Shown here piece by piece: positions 813-8,123 of a stretch of 12,156 nt of DNA (positions are counted from its first letter, which is position 1; every line of letters starts with the position of its first letter). The notes beneath the pieces were generated by a model. That model ran no database searches and was not told the origin of the DNA. It saw nothing but the letters and a program-made list of their open reading frames with translations. Both the position numbers and the translations under genes were made by a program. This DNA is from a virus: the UHGV virus genome UHGV-0071740. The stretch is one strand, 5' to 3'.

Positions 813-920
813 CTTAGCATGGCTTTCTGAGGCTTTCGTGTAGTTGCTGGTTTTTACACTTAATCTTTTGATAATAAAGAATAAGTTTATCTGGCGCTTT
901 CACTGGATTTTCCTCGTTAT

Positions 921-962
921 CTGTGTGTTGCAATCATCTCTGTATTGCAGCTTGTATTGCTT
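921..962. repeat. direct repeats of TGT(G)TTGCA-type motif (candidate integrase arm-type sites, left end)
   Basis: TGTGTGTTGCAA 923-934, TGTATTGCAG 941-950, TGTATTGC 953-960, the last two 12 bp apart; the same motif recurs at 7234-7256 near the other end. Confidence 0.55.
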
Positions 963-975
963 TTTGGGGCTAAAA

Positions 976-2211
976 ATGGCTGGCGAGAACAAACTGAGCG
1001 ACAAAGCACTTAAAGGATATCTGGGGAAACCCAGAGAAAAGCAGATCACCATTGCTGATGGAAAGGGGCTTTCTATTCGTGTGAGTACCAAGGGGGCTGT
1101 GAGCTTTGTTTTCTTCTACAGGTTAGCAGGTGGCCGGGCTGCTCCGGTCTGGCTAACGTTGGGTAAATATCCTGATATGTCACTCAAACAGGCAAGGGAA
1201 AAGCGCGACGAGTGCCGTGGTTGGTTGGCTGACAAACGTGATCCGCGTATCCAGATTAAGATTCAGGCTGAAGAACGCTTAAAGCCGGTCACAGTGGAGG
1301 ATGCACTAAATTACTGGTATGAAAATTACTGTAAGGTGCGTCGTAAAACTCATGCTGTAACGCTTGGCAGATTTCGAAAGCATATCTTTCCCTATATCGG
1401 TCATTTGCCCGTAAATGACACTCACCTATATGAATGGCTGGACTGTTTTGACCGAATTAAACGTAATGCACCAGTTATGGCGGCGTATGTTTTTTCTGAC
1501 ACTAAATTAGCTCTTCGTTTTTGTCGGGTACGCCAGTACGCGACGTGTGATGTTTTAAAGGATTTGCGCATGAGTGATGTGGGGCAGATTGCAGGTAAGC
1601 GGGATCGGGTTCTGGATGAAGCCGAACTGGGCCAGCTCTGGAAGGCAATTTTTGTCGAGCCTGATTTAAAACTAATGTCTGAATACACGCGAAAAATGTT
1701 TGTGCTTTGTACAGTATTTGGATGTCGAATGAGTGAAGCCCGATTATCTGAATGGAGCGAATGGGATCTCGAAAGTTGGGTTTGGACTGTACCAAAAGAT
1801 CACTCAAAAACTGGTGTTGAAATCGTCAGACCAGTACCTGAAATTCTACGACAGTGGGTAACGGATGTTCACGAAGAGACAAAACATACTGGTTATGTGC
1901 TGGGAAGTCTGCGAATTAGAGAAAGCGTAAGCAAGATTGGGGGGAAAATCGGTAAACGTTTGGGCCATGAAAAACAATGGTCACTACACGACCTTAGAAG
2001 AACGCTATCTACTCATCTAAGTGATCTCGGTGTTGAATTTTATGTAGTAGAACAACTGTTAGGCCATGCGCTACCTGGCGTGGCAGGTGTTTACAACCGG
2101 AGTAAGTTTATGGCTAAAAAACTGGATGCTCTGGAACTCTGGACTACATATCTCAATAGCATCGCAGGTGCTGATTCAAAAGTGACAATCCTCAAACAAA
2201 AGGCTGGTTAA
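976..2211 (+). CDS. int: tyrosine recombinase / phage integrase, P4-like with N-terminal arm-binding domain
   Basis: ORF track 844..2211; most plausible start is ATG 976 (MAGENKLSDKALKGYLGKP...). C-terminal catalytic signature HDLRRT...LLGHA...GVYNRS (conserved His/Arg and putative catalytic Tyr); sits next to the element boundary. Confidence 0.9.
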   Translation: MAGENKLSDKALKGYLGKPREKQITIADGKGLSIRVSTKGAVSFVFFYRLAGGRAAPVWLTLGKYPDMSLKQAREKRDECRGWLADKRDPRIQIKIQAEERLKPVTVEDALNYWYENYCKVRRKTHAVTLGRFRKHIFPYIGHLPVNDTHLYEWLDCFDRIKRNAPVMAAYVFSDTKLALRFCRVRQYATCDVLKDLRMSDVGQIAGKRDRVLDEAELGQLWKAIFVEPDLKLMSEYTRKMFVLCTVFGCRMSEARLSEWSEWDLESWVWTVPKDHSKTGVEIVRPVPEILRQWVTDVHEETKHTGYVLGSLRIRESVSKIGGKIGKRLGHEKQWSLHDLRRTLSTHLSDLGVEFYVVEQLLGHALPGVAGVYNRSKFMAKKLDALELWTTYLNSIAGADSKVTILKQKAG

Positions 2212-2212
2212 C

Positions 2213-2434
2213 ATGAAAAAAATGGCAATTGTTGATAAAAAGGGTCTGGAGTACATTCCTAACATCGATCGTATGATCCGTGAGAAAGAATGTCGGGAGC
2301 TAACCACTCTTGCAAACAGCACACGCTGGAAGCTGGAGAAGGAAGGAAAATTTCCTAAGCGGATCAAGATTGGTTCCACTGCTGTTGCATATCGTCTTTC
2401 AGAAGTGCAGGCATGGATTAGGGGAGAGTGGTAA
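2213..2434 (+). CDS. alpA: AlpA-family (CP4-57 type) DNA-binding regulator / excisionase-like protein
   Basis: 73-aa ORF starting 2 nt after the int stop; small basic protein with ...KRIKIGSTAVAYRLSEVQAWIRGEW, typical of AlpA/Vis-like winged-helix proteins that accompany satellite integrases. Confidence 0.75.
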   Translation: MKKMAIVDKKGLEYIPNIDRMIREKECRELTTLANSTRWKLEKEGKFPKRIKIGSTAVAYRLSEVQAWIRGEW

Positions 2435-3835
2435 GAATTTAGACAGTGGATGGAATCCTATGGGGGGAACCCATAGGGTTTTAAATAACATAAATTCAAA
2501 AACGTGCGTAGTTGATGAGATTATATAATTAGGTGGTAAGTATTGAACTATTTCTCCATCTTCTTCAAAAATATGAATAACTCTTGGGAATAATTCAGGG
2601 CGTATAGGATTTAATGCCTTCGGATTATGAAACATGTATATTGCTGTACACCATGGTTCTTGATATGAAGGTGCATTGACAAGAGCAGTAAAAGGCATTG
2701 GGGTACAGCCTTCATCAGTTTTAATACCTCTAACGATGGATTTGACATTTTTTTGTTCAATCCCTGCCACTACTCCCATTCTATCAAATTTTGGGATGGT
2801 GGCATGTGTCGCAAGTAATATGGCTGAGACATTCTCATTTTTATTAGAGCCGAAAAAATTAGATGGTATACTTCGATTTTCAAATAAATGTTGTTCAATT
2901 TTACTTCCAGAATCCATATCTACACCATACAGATAGCTTTGTAGTGCTGGCATTGATATACTCATCGAAAGTCTGTGTGAGTAATCGTGTAAAGCAATAA
3001 TGAAAGGCTTTCCTTTTGTATGATCTAGTTCCCAATAGCATAATTTTAAGGGTTCAGGTTTATGCCTAACTTTCTTTAATAGAGTGCGGGCAAATTTGAA
3101 TGGCATTTGTTCTTTTACATATCTCTGAAGATCTTCTACTGCCTCATGATCAAGTATCAATTTCTCGGTAGGTTCCTCTTGTTCTGCAACTGTGGCAGCT
3201 TCTACAGCAATATCAATGCCATTTTTTGAGATAATATAATCAGGTTGAGCATAATCTCTGCATATTACGAAATCCATTTCGTAGAAAACTGCGTTTAGAT
3301 AAAGTTCGAATAAGCGAGAGTTAAATGAAGCACTCTGGAAATCTCTGATGAATATTCCATCAGGATCTTTACACCAATAAGCTAACTCTTGCATAACAAT
3401 AAATGCAGGATAGTGTTTGGGTTCCTCAAGTAGCATTCTTAGATAAACGTTTTTTTTATGTTCTGGAACTTTGGCTAGGAATATTGAAAATGCCGACTCT
3501 GATTCGTCACCCTGTATAAAACAACCGTTCTTGTGTAGTGATAATAGCTCTGGTATGGCTTTTTCCATATCAGTAATTAAATCATCTTTAGATTCACGGG
3601 ATACAATTACTTTAATCGCTCTAAATTTTTTATCTAAATCCCTACCTAGAAATATAGCGTTGTAATCATTATCTATTTTACAAAAAACAATTGTTGCTAA
3701 GATTGTGACATCATCCTTTATAAATTTGAACCAACAGATTTCCTCCGAAAAGGTTTTTACGTATGGTGTACGACCATAGAAAAATACATCAAATTGTTCT
3801 TTACTGATTTCTAGCATTTTGTGACTTGTTGTCAT
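2399..3835 (-). CDS. hypothetical 478-aa protein, AT-rich, no family assignable by eye (candidate defence/effector cargo)
   Basis: Long uninterrupted minus-strand ORF; start ATG at 3835 preceded by AAGGA Shine-Dalgarno; lies 23 nt downstream of the RHH gene on the same strand; strongly AT-rich relative to its surroundings. Confidence 0.7.
   Translation of the reverse strand: MTTSHKMLEISKEQFDVFFYGRTPYVKTFSEEICWFKFIKDDVTILATIVFCKIDNDYNAIFLGRDLDKKFRAIKVIVSRESKDDLITDMEKAIPELLSLHKNGCFIQGDESESAFSIFLAKVPEHKKNVYLRMLLEEPKHYPAFIVMQELAYWCKDPDGIFIRDFQSASFNSRLFELYLNAVFYEMDFVICRDYAQPDYIISKNGIDIAVEAATVAEQEEPTEKLILDHEAVEDLQRYVKEQMPFKFARTLLKKVRHKPEPLKLCYWELDHTKGKPFIIALHDYSHRLSMSISMPALQSYLYGVDMDSGSKIEQHLFENRSIPSNFFGSNKNENVSAILLATHATIPKFDRMGVVAGIEQKNVKSIVRGIKTDEGCTPMPFTALVNAPSYQEPWCTAIYMFHNPKALNPIRPELFPRVIHIFEEDGEIVQYLPPNYIISSTTHVFEFMLFKTLWVPPIGFHPLSKFLPLSPNPCLHF
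2456..2482 (+). terminator. rho-independent terminator-like hairpin after alpA
   Basis: TCCTATGGG (2456-2464) / CCCATAGGG (2470-2478), 5-nt loop GGGAA, then TTTT 2479-2482; begins 22 nt after the alpA stop. Confidence 0.55.
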
Positions 3836-3858
3836 AGAAGAATCCTTTATGCAAATTA

Positions 3859-4053
3859 TCAGCCTTTAGGTGTTATTCCTTGTTTTATTAGTTCGGCACG
3901 AGCCAGTTCTTTTAGCCAGTTACCTAAGCTCATCCCTTCTTTGGCAGCGACATTAACCATTTGTTCTTTTAATTCTGGGTTAATACGGACTTGGAATGCT
4001 GGTGCTTTACCTGCACCTTTCGGTTGTTTATCACGTTGAATGATAGTTGACAT
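3859..4053 (-). CDS. Arc/CopG-like ribbon-helix-helix DNA-binding protein (putative regulator or antitoxin)
   Basis: 64-aa ORF; segment PAFQVRINPELKEQMVNVAAKEGMSLGNWLKELARAEL fits the beta-strand then helix pattern of Arc/MetJ-type RHH proteins; first gene of the operon with the 478-aa ORF. Confidence 0.6.
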   Translation of the reverse strand: MSTIIQRDKQPKGAGKAPAFQVRINPELKEQMVNVAAKEGMSLGNWLKELARAELIKQGITPKG

Positions 4054-4095
4054 GTGTGTACCTATTGCTTAGTATGATTCTTGATAGGTACACAC
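4054..4095. promoter_or_regulatory. perfect 12-bp inverted repeat GTGTGTACCTAT-N18-ATAGGTACACAC (operator-like)
   Basis: Arms at 4054-4065 and 4084-4095; lies between the predicted -10 and the RHH start codon (4051-4053). Confidence 0.6.
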
Positions 4096-4113
4096 CTTAT
4101 CATGTTTTATTGC

Positions 4114-4142
4114 TATATAACAACGCCCTGCAGTGCTCGCAA
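4114..4142 (-). promoter_or_regulatory. predicted sigma70 promoter for the RHH/478-aa operon
   Basis: On the minus strand: -35 TTGCGA (4142-4137), 17-bp spacer, -10 TATATA (4119-4114); would start transcription about 50 nt upstream of the RHH ATG. Confidence 0.5.
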
Positions 4143-4156
4143 CACATACAGGGCGT
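4123..4156. promoter_or_regulatory. second inverted repeat ACGCCCTG-N18-CAGGGCGT overlapping the predicted -35
   Basis: Perfect 8-bp arms at 4123-4130 and 4149-4156, with the same 18-nt spacer length as the 12-bp palindrome. Confidence 0.4.
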
Positions 4157-4390
4157 CTAACCACCAACGATAGCAACAGTATCGAGGTAGCTATGAGAAA
4201 TCATACCACACACCCGCAAGGGCGGGATTCGCACAACCTGAATAAATACATCTGGCGTTTTATCGCCCTGAGCACCGCACAACCACGCGTAATACACATC
4301 GAGGCCGCCAGCGAACAGGAAGCCCGCCAGCAATCCCCAACTGGCTACGTGATGATATTCGCCGCCCGTATTCGTCAGGAGGTGTGCCAT
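4157..4390 (-). CDS. possible small hydrophobic protein (77 aa); coding status uncertain
   Basis: ORF track; GC-rich block with frequent G at codon position 1 and common E. coli codons in this frame; hydrophobic stretch WGLLAGFLFAGGLDVYYAWLCGA. But its start codon overlaps the start and Shine-Dalgarno of the divergent + gene, which is awkward. Confidence 0.3.
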   Translation of the reverse strand: MAHLLTNTGGEYHHVASWGLLAGFLFAGGLDVYYAWLCGAQGDKTPDVFIQVVRIPPLRVCGMISHSYLDTVAIVGG

Positions 4391-4613
4391 GAATGATCTT
4401 TATTTTAAAGTGCTGACACATGCTGAAAACGCGCTCGTTTGTGGCAAAAATATGCGAGAAATCTTATCAACCTGGCTTGATGGGACAACAAATGCAGAAC
4501 ACGATGAACGGGATGCTAATTTAGCTGGAGCGTTAATTACGTTACTTGATCCTGTCATCAAAGAGCTGGATGAAGCTATAAAAATACACGACCAGAGCTA
4601 TACCGGAGAATAA
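4389..4613 (+). CDS. hypothetical protein (74 aa), first gene of the primase operon
   Basis: ATG 4389 preceded by AGGAGG 4377-4382; followed 3 nt later by the next ORF. Confidence 0.55.
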   Translation: MNDLYFKVLTHAENALVCGKNMREILSTWLDGTTNAEHDERDANLAGALITLLDPVIKELDEAIKIHDQSYTGE

Positions 4614-4616
4614 AAA

Positions 4617-4904
4617 ATGAAAAATAAATTTTCTGGCTTTATTGCCAGCGGTCAAACTCATTCAAAAATCAGCCTTGGGGATATTTTCAAAGACAGCTAT
4701 GGCTATCGGGTAAAGATTATTTCGGTTGATGATCGTCGTGTCTCTTATTTGCGTGATGGTTATGATTTTGAATGTGTTATGCCGCGTCAGCAGTTCGAAA
4801 GAGATTTCATTCTGGTAAAAAATTGCAAGACAGATAATCAGAGGCGTGCCGCAGGCTATATCCGTAAAATTCGGGCAATGTTAGTTGCCGGAGGTAACAA
4901 ATGA
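4617..4904 (+). CDS. hypothetical protein (95 aa), translationally coupled to primase
   Basis: ATG 4617 preceded by GGAGA; its stop overlaps the primase start (ATGA at 4901-4904). Confidence 0.55.
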   Translation: MKNKFSGFIASGQTHSKISLGDIFKDSYGYRVKIISVDDRRVSYLRDGYDFECVMPRQQFERDFILVKNCKTDNQRRAAGYIRKIRAMLVAGGNK

Positions 4905-6667
4905 AACGTGCTCCGAACTTAAAATACCAACCGCGCGACAAAATGACGGAAGTCATCATTTTTGCTGGCAGTGATGCCTGGAGCCATGCAAAAGAATGGA
5001 ATGAATGGGCAGGTAAGCATATTGCAGCAGATGATACACCACCAGTCATTCTGGGTACGGAACAACTGGAAAACCTGGATGATATGCAAATTATCGATGA
5101 AGGCCGTCATTATGTGCGTGTTTATCGTGCCGGAAAGATTGCAGAGAAAAGTCTGACGAAGGTTGCGACATTACTTGCTATTGCAGGCGTAAAGGAAGCA
5201 CGTTGTTACCGTAGCTTTGTTGATCGAGAGCCTGAAGACTGGACTCCGCGCCTTGTCGGCCTAAAAGCTGAAGCGGAGCATGGGGAAAGTCTGGTGATTG
5301 AACTGCCAGTGAAGAAGGCTGAGCGCAAAAATGACGAGCGTGCTTCATCTTTGGCGTTGAATCAGATGGGGGCCAGCCAGCGCGGTGAAGTTCTCCTTGC
5401 ACATTACGGCGGCGAACTGGCAATCAATGCCGACTCTGACACCGTTCATCATTACAACGGCGTTGTATGGGAGCCGGTTCAGGATAAAGAGTTACAGCGT
5501 GCTATGGCGCAGATTTTCATTGATGCGGAGATCAGCTATTCGCAGAACGCTATTAAATCGGCGGTAGATACCATGAAGTTAAGTTTGCCTGTAATGGGGA
5601 ATACAGCCCGTAACCTGATTGGATTCAGTAACGGGGTATTTGATACCAGAACTGGTAATTTTCGGGAGCATAACAAAAACGACTGGTTGTTAATTGCCAG
5701 TGAATTACCTTTCAGCCCACCAGCAGAGGGGGAAACGCTGGCAACACATGCGCCGAATTTCTGGAAGTGGTTGCGCCGTTCGGTGGCTGAGAATGACCGC
5801 AAGGCAGATCGCGTACTGGCGGCATTATTCATGGTGCTGGCGAACCGGTACGACTGGCAGTTATTCATTGAGGTAACAGGGCCGGGGGGAAGTGGTAAAA
5901 GTGTGATGGCGGAGATTTGCACCATGCTGGCGGGTAAGGCTAATACAGTATCAGCAAGCATGAAGGCGCTGGAAGATGCAAGGGAACGTGCGTTAGTGGT
6001 TGGCTTTTCGCTGATTATCATGCCGGATATGACCCGCTACGCTGGTGATGGGGCAGGGATTAAGGCCATTACAGGCGGTGACAAGGTGGCAATTGACCCG
6101 AAACACAAAGCCCCCTATTCAACGCGTATTCCGGCAGTAGTGCTGGCGGTTAACAATAACGCCATGTCATTCAGTGACCGCAGCGGGGGGATCTCACGTC
6201 GTCGGGTGATATTCAATTTTTCGGAAGTTGTACCGGAGAACGAACGCGATTCGATGCTGGCGGAAAAAATAGAAGGTGAGCTGGCGGTAGTGATTCGTCA
6301 TCTGCTTACAAGGTTTGCTGATCAGGACGAAGCCAGACGCCTGTTATATGAGCAGCAGAAATCTGAAGAAGCACTGGCGATAAAGCGAGAGGGGGATTCG
6401 CTGGTGGACTTCTGCGGTTATCTCATGGCATCGGTAATGTGTGATGGCCTGTTAGTGGGTAATGCTGAAATTGTGCCATTCAGCCCACGCAGGTATCTCT
6501 ATCATGCCTATCTTGATGAGCTGTTCGTTCCATGTGCATCACCGAGTTTATTACGAAGAGTACCTAACCCATTTACAACTGCAGAACAACCGCCGAGAAT
6601 TTGTTTGAAGATATTTTCAGTATGTTGGTCGGCAGATAGGTTAAGTTCTTTTGAAAGAGTTTTATAA
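4901..6667 (+). CDS. P4-family primase/helicase-like replication protein (D5_N-like region, SF3-type P-loop), C-terminus apparently truncated or chimeric
   Basis: 588-aa ORF; Walker A GPGGSGKS encoded near 5880-5900; hydrophobic-D Walker B-like LIIMPD; overall pattern of phage/plasmid primase P4-family C-terminal domain; the last ~50 codons are antisense to the HEPN gene and look like read-through. Confidence 0.8.
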   Translation: MKRAPNLKYQPRDKMTEVIIFAGSDAWSHAKEWNEWAGKHIAADDTPPVILGTEQLENLDDMQIIDEGRHYVRVYRAGKIAEKSLTKVATLLAIAGVKEARCYRSFVDREPEDWTPRLVGLKAEAEHGESLVIELPVKKAERKNDERASSLALNQMGASQRGEVLLAHYGGELAINADSDTVHHYNGVVWEPVQDKELQRAMAQIFIDAEISYSQNAIKSAVDTMKLSLPVMGNTARNLIGFSNGVFDTRTGNFREHNKNDWLLIASELPFSPPAEGETLATHAPNFWKWLRRSVAENDRKADRVLAALFMVLANRYDWQLFIEVTGPGGSGKSVMAEICTMLAGKANTVSASMKALEDARERALVVGFSLIIMPDMTRYAGDGAGIKAITGGDKVAIDPKHKAPYSTRIPAVVLAVNNNAMSFSDRSGGISRRRVIFNFSEVVPENERDSMLAEKIEGELAVVIRHLLTRFADQDEARRLLYEQQKSEEALAIKREGDSLVDFCGYLMASVMCDGLLVGNAEIVPFSPRRYLYHAYLDELFVPCASPSLLRRVPNPFTTAEQPPRICLKIFSVCWSADRLSSFERVL

Positions 6668-7173
6668 AGCTCTGACATTTCAATATTTTTATTATTATAC
6701 TGAATGCCCATATCATCAAGAATGTGTTTGCAAACTGTTTCAAGAAGTGTTCTTGCGGAGGTTATCGCACCATCCGGATCTGTATGGCGCCGTTCAAGTG
6801 CTTTTATCCAAACGGCGTGGACTCCATCCTCGTTAAACTTTCTTAATACATCAGATATGTCTTCATCCGCTGGAGCTTTATTTTTCCCTTCTAGATAGTC
6901 CAGCATCGGCTGAAATGCCTTATAAATCAAATCTCTCCGGGGGGCATACTTTTCAGTCTTTTTTATAAATCCCCAAAATTCTTTTAGTGAGCGATTAGTT
7001 CTCACAAACTCTGGTAATAGCTGATGTAAAGGAGGATTTTGTAAGAAATATGTTCTTAGAAGCAAATAATCATTATTAGCTTCATCCTGGGCTCCTGTAG
7101 CTCTTGCAATTAGTATGTTTTGAAGCGCTACTGCGCGCTCTAGGTCATTTTGAAGGGTATCTATAATATTCAT
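6508..7173 (-). CDS. HEPN-type abortive-infection-like protein (Abi_C-like), 221 aa
   Basis: Minus-strand ORF, AT-rich; C-terminal GLGTLRNKLGDAHG contains an R-x6-H motif of the HEPN/Abi_C type; only 7 residues follow the motif His, so the protein may be C-terminally shortened. Confidence 0.55.
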   Translation of the reverse strand: MNIIDTLQNDLERAVALQNILIARATGAQDEANNDYLLLRTYFLQNPPLHQLLPEFVRTNRSLKEFWGFIKKTEKYAPRRDLIYKAFQPMLDYLEGKNKAPADEDISDVLRKFNEDGVHAVWIKALERRHTDPDGAITSARTLLETVCKHILDDMGIQYNNKNIEMSELYKTLSKELNLSADQHTENIFKQILGGCSAVVNGLGTLRNKLGDAHGTNSSSR

Positions 7174-7233
7174 AACAAATCTTTATTCACTTCATTTGTG
7201 GGTTGATAATTGAATGGTTTGTACATTGATTTC

Positions 7234-7256
7234 TGTGTATTGCAGTGTGTATTGCA
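7234..7256. repeat. tandem direct repeat TGTGTATTGCA x2 (candidate integrase arm-type sites, right end)
   Basis: Copies at 7234-7244 and 7246-7256 (12-bp register), about 80-100 bp inside the right junction; same motif and orientation as the left-end copies. Confidence 0.55.
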
Positions 7257-7332
7257 ACATAGCCATTCAGGTAGAGATTATGCTCTATTTTTCCTCTTAT
7301 ATCATTCACATACTTACACCATTGACTCATGT

Positions 7333-7342
7333 AGCCGAAGCA
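7333..7342. repeat. right copy of 10-bp direct repeat AGCCGAAGCA (attR core)
   Basis: Identical to 803-812; lambda-like E sequence resumes from here. Confidence 0.8.
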
Positions 7343-8123
7343 TGAAGTGAATCCGCAGATGACCCTGCGTCGCCTGCCGGATGAAGATCCGCAGAATCTG
7401 GCGGACCCGGCTTACCGCCGCCGTCGCATCATCATGCAGAACATGCGTGACGAAGAGCTGGCCATTGCTCAGGTCGAAGAGATGCAGGCAGTTTCTGCCG
7501 TGCTTAAGGGCAAATACACCATGACCGGTGAAGCCTTCGATCCGGTTGAGGTGGATATGGGCCGCAGTGAGGAGAATAACATCACGCAGTCCGGCGGCAC
7601 GGAGTGGAGCAAGCGTGACAAGTCCACGTATGACCCGACCGACGATATCGAAGCCTACGCGCTGAACGCCAGCGGTGTGGTGAATATCATCGTGTTCGAT
7701 CCGAAAGGCTGGGCGCTGTTCCGTTCCTTCAAAGCCGTCAAGGAGAAGCTGGATACCCGTCGTGGCTCTAATTCCGAGCTGGAGACAGCGGTGAAAGACC
7801 TGGGCAAAGCGGTGTCCTATAAGGGGATGTATGGCGATGTGGCCATCGTCGTGTATTCCGGACAGTACGTGGAAAACGGCGTCAAAAAGAACTTCCTGCC
7901 GGACAACACGATGGTGCTGGGGAACACTCAGGCACGCGGTCTGCGCACCTATGGCTGCATTCAGGATGCGGACGCACAGCGCGAAGGCATTAACGCCTCT
8001 GCCCGTTACCCGAAAAACTGGGTGACCACCGGCGATCCGGCGCGTGAGTTCACCATGATTCAGTCAGCACCGCTGATGCTGCTGGCTGACCCTGATGAGT
8101 TCGTGTCCGTACAACTGGCGTAA
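7333..8123 (+). pseudogene. E: major capsid protein E, C-terminal fragment (codon ~80 to end), no start codon of its own
   Basis: Frame open from 7335, with an in-frame TAG at 7332-7334 just upstream; translation ...KPKHEVNPQMTLRRLPDEDPQN...DEFVSVQLA matches the remainder of lambda gpE. Confidence 0.95.

Follow-up and report, generated by a model that had tools for sequence, protein, structure and literature searches.

A candidate two-layer regulatory switch of an Arc-like repressor and a predicted antisense RNA in a helper-embedded phage-inducible chromosomal island

The virus genome UHGV-0071740 (12,156 nucleotides (nts), the whole of which is called the window below) carries a satellite element in which a small leftward repressor gene and a rightward replication operon, headed by an icd-like gene, are separated by a 139-bp gap, the focus of this analysis. 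The gap holds two perfect inverted repeats, IR1 and IR2, and the question is what each of them serves. By sequence comparison, we consider it rather probable that positions 4047-4208 form a two-layer immunity or regulatory switch of a helper-embedded phage-inducible chromosomal island (PICI), in which a DNA-binding repressor is combined with an antisense RNA. IR1 very probably represents a two-part operator of the Arc-like repressor, and IR2 is best described as the base of an RNA hairpin in a predicted leftward transcript, not as a protein operator. An initial annotation of this DNA had already proposed a regulatory hub of a satellite between the leftward operon of the repressor and the rightward one for replication, and this location holds.

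Both repeats were confirmed by reading the sequence and by a repeat search. IR1 consists of two 12-bp arms, GTGTGTACCTAT (4054-4065) and ATAGGTACACAC (4084-4095), and IR2 of two 8-bp arms, ACGCCCTG (4123-4130) and CAGGGCGT (4149-4156), each perfect and with an 18-nt spacer. The two hexamers of the initial annotation are also present where it had placed them, namely TATATA at 4114-4119 and, 17 nts away, TCGCAA at 4137-4142, which reads TTGCGA on the minus strand. We compared the perfect inverted repeats of the window (spacer of up to 40 nts) with those of 100 dinucleotide-preserving shuffles of it. For perfect 12-bp inverted repeats, the expected number per window is 0.03 and the observed number is one, which two of the 100 shuffles reached; hence, IR1 is non-random by itself. 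Perfect 8-bp inverted repeats are expected 7.6 times and were observed 11 times, five of these inside IR1. Since IR2 alone is at chance level, it becomes credible through comparative evidence only. The initial annotation had also pointed to the shared spacer. The two lengths are indeed equal, but in relatives the IR1 spacer measures 16-19 nts and the distance between the IR2 arms varies, so that the equality is a coincidence.

IR1 and the Arc-like repressor

The leftward gene (3859-4053, minus strand, in the list of open reading frames (ORFs); start codon complementary to 4051-4053) encodes 64 amino acids (aa), and its product is, judged by sequence and profile matches, an Arc-family ribbon-helix-helix (RHH) protein, in agreement with the RHH assignment made initially. 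The single sequence matches the Arc repressor of phage P22 with E=0.063 over residues 12-59, which cover the whole strand-helix-helix unit. When a profile of 18 homologues was compared with PDB, Arc repressor (1b28) was matched with E=2.3e-5, and the same profile also matches an RHH antitoxin, an 'Arc family DNA-binding protein', and a CopG-family RHH protein. A further match is PHROG 228, 'Arc-like repressor' (1.2e-5). The NCBI name of the protein is 'HicB family antitoxin'; this identity was rejected, because the Pfam HicB score (20.3 bits, covering the RHH-like part only) lies below the cut-off of 21 and no HicA gene is adjacent, the neighbours being PD-T7-1 and the icd-like gene. Gene order is kept in nine further Escherichia coli loci and 45 viral-contig loci, with a recurring layout of a leftward RHH gene of 60-65 aa, a spacer of about 135 nts, the leader, and a rightward icd-like or ash-like gene. 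Regulators of the YlcI/YnfO type are distant homologues of the repressor.

The evidence that links this protein to IR1 comes from about 30 distinct relatives with 18 distinct arm pairs, in which both arms co-vary with the DNA-reading beta-strand of the repressor. The strand PAFQ[V/I]RI, which is PAFQVRI in the window, goes with arm GTGTGTACCTAT, PTFQ[I/M]RI with GTACGTACCTA, PPFHMRI with GTGTACACCTAT, and PMFNVRI with GTATAGACCTAT. Even where repressors are only 67-70% identical to that of the window, the arms are unchanged as long as the beta-strand is unchanged, and changes at arm positions 3, 5, and 6 affect both arms and go along with changes in residues of the strand. These variable residues align with Gln9 and Asn11 of Arc, which contact bases in that protein. 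The 23 mismatches found between IR1 arms comprise 11 that would be G.T on the minus strand, four that would be G.T on the plus strand, and eight that cannot pair in either; such mixed-strand mismatches fit a DNA site rather than an RNA stem. Elements with YlcI/YnfO-type regulators have, at the same place, two copies of their own 10-12-bp palindromes.

IR1 is also placed on the core of a predicted promoter that the initial annotation did not contain. A consensus promoter scan returned the putative rightward promoter P_R, with TTGACA (4047-4052) as -35 and TAGTAT (4070-4075, inside the IR1 spacer) as -10; the hexamers are those of a sigma-70 promoter, with a 17-nt spacing, ten of 12 consensus matches, A at -11, and T at -7. 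P_R faces the icd-like/primase operon, and its start is predicted at about 4082-4084. The left arm of IR1 (operator half O1) thus occupies the spacer between -35 and -10, and the right arm (O2) begins at the predicted start and extends from about +1 to +12. TTGACA lies over the Met-Ser-Thr codons of the repressor gene; none of the distinct repressor loci examined lacks it, and TAG[T/C]AT or a TAnnnT variant follows it at 17-18 nts. The left arm also holds, on the minus strand, the Shine-Dalgarno sequence (AGG) of the repressor gene. The initial annotation had interpreted IR1 as an autoregulated RHH operator: the RHH site is upheld by the co-variation of arms and beta-strand, but the main promoter under its control would be the rightward one instead of the leftward one then assumed. 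For the repressor gene itself, a better-conserved promoter candidate is P_L, an extended -10 element TGaTAAGGT (4102-4094, minus strand) that adjoins the right arm and has a predicted start at about 4087. In the sequences of most repressor loci, a minus-strand TGnTAAGGT or a close variant can be read next to the right arm.

The IR2 hairpin and the predicted leftward RNA

On the minus strand, IR2 forms the base of a terminator-like hairpin, stem-loop 2 (SL2, 4122-4157), in which G.U pairs lengthen the stem to about 16 bp and close a loop of 3 nts. The window RNA from 4194 to 4108 folds into two adjacent hairpins (-37.4 kcal/mol, z=-4.6), as against -22.6 kcal/mol (z=-2.9) for the plus-strand fold. 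To compare relatives, we used 120 viral contigs that share a 16-mer just right of IR2 and carried out formal tests on 87 distinct sequences. The hairpin is present in all 120 contigs, with variable sequence. Arm pairs such as ACGCCCTG/CAGGGCGT, GAAGCCCCG/CGGGGCTTC, ATGCCTCG/CGAGGCAT, and GAGGCTG/CAGCCTC occur, and the inner stem co-varies from AGTG/CACT to GGTG/CACC. RNAalifold gave a consensus of -19.5 kcal/mol on the minus strand versus -5.8 kcal/mol on the plus strand, with 20 consensus pairs, seven of which have compensatory changes. The paired cells amount to 98%, compared to 34-52% in slid controls, and none of 500 shuffles reached the observed pairing value on any of five measures.

The strand on which the hairpin acts is indicated by its non-Watson-Crick positions. 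Among the 33 SL2 variants, which stand beside a nearly invariant leader, 254 such cells are G.U pairs on the minus strand, and only one is a G.U pair on the plus strand, where the others would be C.A mismatches. The minus-strand hairpin is the more stable one in 67 of 83 distinct upstream sequences. All 13 divergent leader types have a stable two-hairpin layout on the minus strand, which is the more stable strand in 11 of them and in none the less stable one. Because the arm sequences are free to change, the distance between the arms varies, and wobble is tolerated on one strand only, IR2 does not behave as a protein palindrome.

With its G+C-rich stem and short loop, minus-strand SL2 resembles an intrinsic terminator, and it is followed by a U-rich tail, GUUAUAUAGCAAUA (4108-4121, minus strand). 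Over the 12 nts after SL2, 36 distinct tails have a T fraction of 0.56, versus a background of 0.25, and the family consensus is UUGYUUUUU, counted from the last two paired U. This U-tract is interrupted, and a simple scan did not list it. The other hairpin, SL1 (4158-4193, minus strand), is complementary to the Shine-Dalgarno sequence (4184-4187) and the start codon (4193-4195) of the icd-like gene. Its outer stem, UAGCUACC/GGUGGUUA, depends on G.U pairs, and in most other leader types the anti-Shine-Dalgarno CUCC lies in the SL1 loop. Between the two hairpins, GGUUAG (CTAACC on the plus strand, 4158-4163) is a single-stranded linker; it is the only motif that is nearly invariant across all divergent leader types. 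The order SL1, linker, SL2, and U-rich tail is the usual layout of a cis-antisense RNA, and a conserved, strand-specific structure lies over the ribosome-binding site of the presumed target, as is characteristic of such RNAs. The predicted RNA would be about 80 nts long and antisense to the icd-like ribosome-binding site. Its candidate promoter, P_as, read from the sequence, is an extended -10 element TGgTATGAT (4208-4200, minus strand) with a predicted start at about 4191-4194; TATGAT, TATAAT, or TATATT is retained at this place even where the plus-strand gene differs.

The leader module is widespread. In a megablast search of 5,426 complete E. coli genomes, 1353 match the query, most of them only from about 4109-4126 to about 4391 (IR2 and the icd-like gene), and the whole query is matched in five. 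With a covariance model made from a single leader type, other types were detected, as well as a copy in Xenorhabdus (E values of 1.5e-20 to 3e-3), always in the same orientation as the regulator gene. The module is also found with unrelated YlcI/YnfO-type regulators, from which its distance varies. The copy in Xenorhabdus budapestensis (L217 5926-6025) scores 72 bits, so that the motif is not confined to Escherichia, and one E. coli locus has a second copy (L130 716-815). Matches in a 14-mer scan of genome contigs came from unrelated phyla and were nearly all due to chance; only that in Xenorhabdus was real. No match was obtained when DNA similarity of 4096-4400 was sought in 50,697 phage records, among which P4 is expected, and the annotated records examined have no RNA feature at the leader.

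An RNA of the P1 C4 or P4 CI type was also considered for IR2 and dropped. Rfam 15 returned nothing relevant at the gathering score in the whole window or at E up to 1 in 3800-4700, and even at this E value there was no match to C4 (RF01695), isrK (RF01394), or c4-a1b1 (RF03163). As a positive control, a related PICI (L003) scores 46.8-77.6 bits with these models; since they detect such RNAs there, the P1/P4-type immunity RNAs are taken to be absent from the window. In L003, isrK, C4 (twice), and c4-a1b1 are located at 2703-3366, within an 'ash family' pseudogene that follows closely downstream of the same leader. Because L003 carries both, the leader with SL2 and a C4 system can coexist. When the window was searched for another occurrence of the leader sequence CTAACCACCAACG, direct or complementary, as a trans partner like seqA/seqB/seqC, matches were at chance level only.

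Several other observations concern the DNA around the leader. The longest ORF here runs from a GTG at 4133, inside SL2, to 4396 on the plus strand, and the family PHROG 6196 ('transcriptional repressor', 93 positions) is longer at the N-terminus by about 26 positions; evidently, some gene callers place the start of the icd-like gene farther upstream, so that the hairpin is translated. Within the icd-like gene, roughly the first 26 codons (4196-4270) show DNA conservation of at least 90%, versus about 80-90% in the rest. They contain a palindrome, CCCGCAAGGGCGGG (4213-4226), and a stem, GGCGTTTTATCGCC (4254-4267), and are shared with 'ash family' genes; this conservation may stem from a promoter or another regulatory signal that overlaps the gene, or from a recombination joint. 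In addition, 4072-4091 and 4187-4206 are 80% complementary over 20 nts, with GTATGATT...ATAG[G/C]TAC in inverted orientation. This mirrors the resemblance between P_R and the candidate leftward promoter in their -10 and start regions and is probably a coincidence, as relatives' sequences show no matching change.

The proposed switch and competing explanations

We infer the following scheme from the sequence, and this holds for all transcription starts, for repressor binding, for termination at SL2, and for the regulatory role of the RNA. In the first layer, the RHH protein would bind both arms of IR1, over the spacer and the start point of P_R; given this geometry, the bound repressor would block P_R and shut off transcription of the operon of the icd-like gene, orf74, DUF4222, and primase. 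Because the right arm adjoins the conserved leftward extended -10 element of P_L, the repressor probably limits its own synthesis as well. In the second layer, a leftward transcript would begin near the icd-like start codon, fold into SL1 and SL2, and be ended by SL2 and the U-rich tail in the manner of an intrinsic terminator. The resulting RNA of about 80 nts would be complementary throughout to the 5' leader of every transcript from P_R and would either prevent the icd-like gene from being translated or cause the leader duplex to decay. Leaky expression of the putative division inhibitor and of the replication genes would thereby be silenced.

Some points weigh against this scheme. The U-tract of the window, UUGUUAUAU, is weaker than that of most relatives and not contiguous with the stem; for these reasons, termination at SL2 may be partial. 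The G.U pairs of SL2 represent only about four to six independent events, and the two in SL1 few, because they are invariant in the data set. P_as has no -35 element and was not returned by the consensus scan, and since its -10 coincides with conserved His/Tyr-Thr codons, its conservation is indistinguishable from coding constraint. As for IR1, the correlation between operator and beta-strand follows clades, and shared ancestry contributes to it; moreover, the arm centres are about 30 bp apart, with the variable spacer between the arms, unlike the compact 21-bp operator of Arc.

Four other explanations were weighed against the switch. According to the initial annotation, a strong leftward promoter (TTGCGA, 4142-4137, and TATATA, 4119-4114) would drive the repressor gene, IR1 would be its autoregulatory operator, and IR2 would be bound by another protein, such as AlpA or a factor of the helper phage. 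The repressor gene does need some leftward promoter, the hexamers exist, 17 nts apart, and IR1 is located between them and the start of its coding sequence. However, at -7, where T is nearly invariant, TATATA has an A, this promoter was absent from the output of the consensus scan, and close relatives with the same repressor, IR1, and IR2 have TACATA, TCCAGA, TACAGA, or ATCTGT at this position. The supposed -10 falls in the tail of SL2 and the supposed -35 in its loop, which differs among the 33 variants. A strong promoter at this place is thus not borne out, and IR2 as an AlpA or helper-phage protein site was rejected on strand bias and arm variability, as its arms vary in sequence and distance yet stay paired, with G.U on the minus strand. 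We regard this arrangement as very unlikely. The chance seems slighter still that the IR2 hairpin acts in the plus-strand mRNA leader (as a stabiliser, an RNase III site, or a structure that an AlpA-type antiterminator overcomes) or in single-stranded DNA. The hairpin also folds on the plus strand, as given above, an alpA gene lies upstream, and AlpA of Pseudomonas aeruginosa is a processive antiterminator (PMC7969949, PMC9371919). On that strand, though, the tolerated mismatches would be non-pairing C.A or A.C, the consensus fold is weak, and the hairpin is followed by TCTAACCACC instead of a U-tract. A role in single-stranded DNA finds no origin features here, although minus-strand DNA and RNA are indistinguishable by sequence.

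The remaining two explanations keep the RNA structure on the minus strand. In one of them, which we hold to be unlikely but the most probable of the four, the structured RNA is the 5' leader of a repressor/PD-T7-1 mRNA that starts at about 4193, SL2 is a leaky terminator or attenuator, and the switch works mainly through interference of the convergent promoter with P_R; the face-to-face promoters of coliphages 186 and P2 are an analogue of such interference. This would agree with the imperfect U-tract of the window, with the invariable co-orientation of covariance-model matches and the repressor gene, and with the lack of a well-conserved canonical promoter between SL2 and that gene. On the other hand, the conserved TGnTAAGGT by the right arm could be a dedicated repressor promoter, the occurrence of the leader module with unrelated YlcI/YnfO-type regulators at different distances does not fit, and the layout from SL1 to the U-rich tail fits a free-standing antisense RNA. 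The two readings are compatible, because partial termination at SL2 would give both products. The other explanation, quite unlikely in our estimate, is that IR1 is an RNA hairpin in the repressor mRNA, whose 12-bp stem hides the Shine-Dalgarno AGG and provides translational control instead of, or besides, an operator. The leftward RNA 4107-4040 indeed folds at -20.5 kcal/mol (z=-5.4) with the Shine-Dalgarno sequence inside the stem, the spacer varies in length (16-19 nts) as a loop might, and the mismatches lean to minus-strand G.T (11 versus four). Nevertheless, eight of 23 mismatches are unpairable in either strand, the arms track the DNA-reading residues of the repressor, which is not required of an RNA hairpin, and they are placed exactly on the core elements of P_R. 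Furthermore, if the candidate start of P_L at about 4087 is used, the repressor mRNA would not include most of the right arm. The two-layer switch, with IR1 as a repressor operator and IR2 within an antisense RNA, is the explanation that we favour.

The satellite element and comparison with known systems

The window represents the late region of a lambda-like prophage, with a gpD-like gene, the major capsid gene E, and tail genes. Gene E, which is of the lambda type (541-843 and 7347-8123), is interrupted by the 6.5-kb satellite (844-7346). Domain matches (Pfam/NCBIfam) identify an integrase (982-2211) and AlpA (2213-2434). The repressor gene is followed directly, on its own strand, by the gene of the anti-phage defence protein PD-T7-1 (2399-3835, minus strand, 478 aa; PADLOC, E=9e-154). 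The rightward operon consists of the icd-like gene (4193-4396, plus strand, 67 aa; NCBIfam NF033153, E=6.6e-20), orf74, DUF4222, and a P4-type primase gene (4901-6667, plus strand; Pfam D5_N/DUF5906, TIGR01613), and an AbiJ-like gene is located at 6508-7173. Co-oriented int, alpA, and P4-type primase genes within a prophage late gene are the features of helper-embedded PICIs, and those of capsid gene E ('capE' type) have been described as a class (PMC10111431). E. coli MLI104K2 (NZ_CP116925) is one of the strains that carry this element, and the annotation of another, E. coli SCU-316 (NZ_CP054371), shows an identical configuration and insertion; with this match and that to the published class, the element type and its insertion site are already known. 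The RHH operator, P_R, and the leftward antisense RNA are not described for the 11capE-type PICIs of PMC10111431.

Compared to helper-embedded PICIs such as 11capE, the window copy has lost its late zone. The SCU-316 element is 99% identical, but about 5.2 kb of it (L001 11715-16974) are swapped in the window for about 0.8 kb with the AbiJ-like gene (6514-7301). The lost stretch contains the C-terminus of the primase, SSB, the satellite's own major-capsid and decoration genes, a helix-turn-helix gene, and a restriction endonuclease gene. As the primase ORF ends in unrelated sequence, the window copy may be replication-deficient. In relatives, the slot of PD-T7-1 is occupied by an Abi protein or unrelated hypothetical proteins and thus holds variable cargo of the leftward operon, which suggests a hotspot of defence cargo that would be co-transcribed with the repressor.

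How Gram-negative PICIs are silenced is unsettled: a description from 2018 calls their global repressor unclear and their transcription unidirectional (PMC6092414). This analysis offers a candidate switch made up of a repressor, its operator, the controlled promoter, and an antisense RNA. The literature searched yielded no antisense RNA or RHH repressor in PICIs, which does not exclude that either exists. It is a tentative idea that Gram-negative PICIs of this lineage have an immunity module, as yet undescribed, in which Arc-like repressors of exchangeable specificity act on the promoter of the replication operon and a widespread cis-antisense RNA silences the icd-like first gene; the two layers would supply the 'missing' repressor function that the founding paper left unsettled. 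The natural variants of operator and beta-strand offer a ready-made specificity series for an Arc-like protein, and the leader module of the predicted RNA, for which there is no Rfam family, is matched in about one in four complete E. coli genomes. Should the transcripts not be found, the locus would be an ordinary divergent promoter/operator region of a known element type.

Among known systems, the nearest functional analogue is the immI region of phage P22, with its RHH repressors Arc and Mnt, the overlapping promoters Pant and Pmnt, and the sar antisense RNA. In both cases, an Arc-family repressor has operators (probable ones here) on the core of a strong promoter, beside the divergent promoter of the repressor gene (predicted here), and a short antisense RNA (also predicted here) has complementarity to the ribosome-binding site of the gene downstream. 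Unlike P22, the window has one repressor with two inverted arms flanking the -10 element, and the target operon encodes the icd-like protein and primase of a satellite, not an antirepressor. No sequence similarity extends beyond the RHH fold, and the switch here is a prediction from sequence. Another analogue is the immI region of P1, where c4 RNA acts on the icd ribosome-binding site. As in immI of P1/P7 (c4 RNA, icd, and ant) and in P4 (CI/seqA), a small RNA would guard an icd-type ribosome-binding region or the leader of a satellite primase operon; the difference is that C4 and CI are cut from the sense transcript and pair with their targets through loops, whereas the proposed RNA would come from the opposite strand and be fully complementary. 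Stl and Rpr, the master repressors of Gram-positive PICIs, are larger proteins and helix-turn-helix repressors, unlike the 64-aa RHH repressor of the window. The locus resembles the Gram-positive PICIs that they control in having a repressor gene divergent from the replication operon and an operator in between (PMC6092414). With regard to the RNA, the predicted transcript overlaps the ribosome-binding site of a putatively toxic small protein, as the antisense RNA of hok/sok does. In type I toxin-antitoxin systems such as hok/sok, the cis-antisense RNA is made constitutively and carries a recognition hairpin at its 5' end and a terminator at its 3' end. Unlike in hok/sok, the target here would be the first gene of a long operon.

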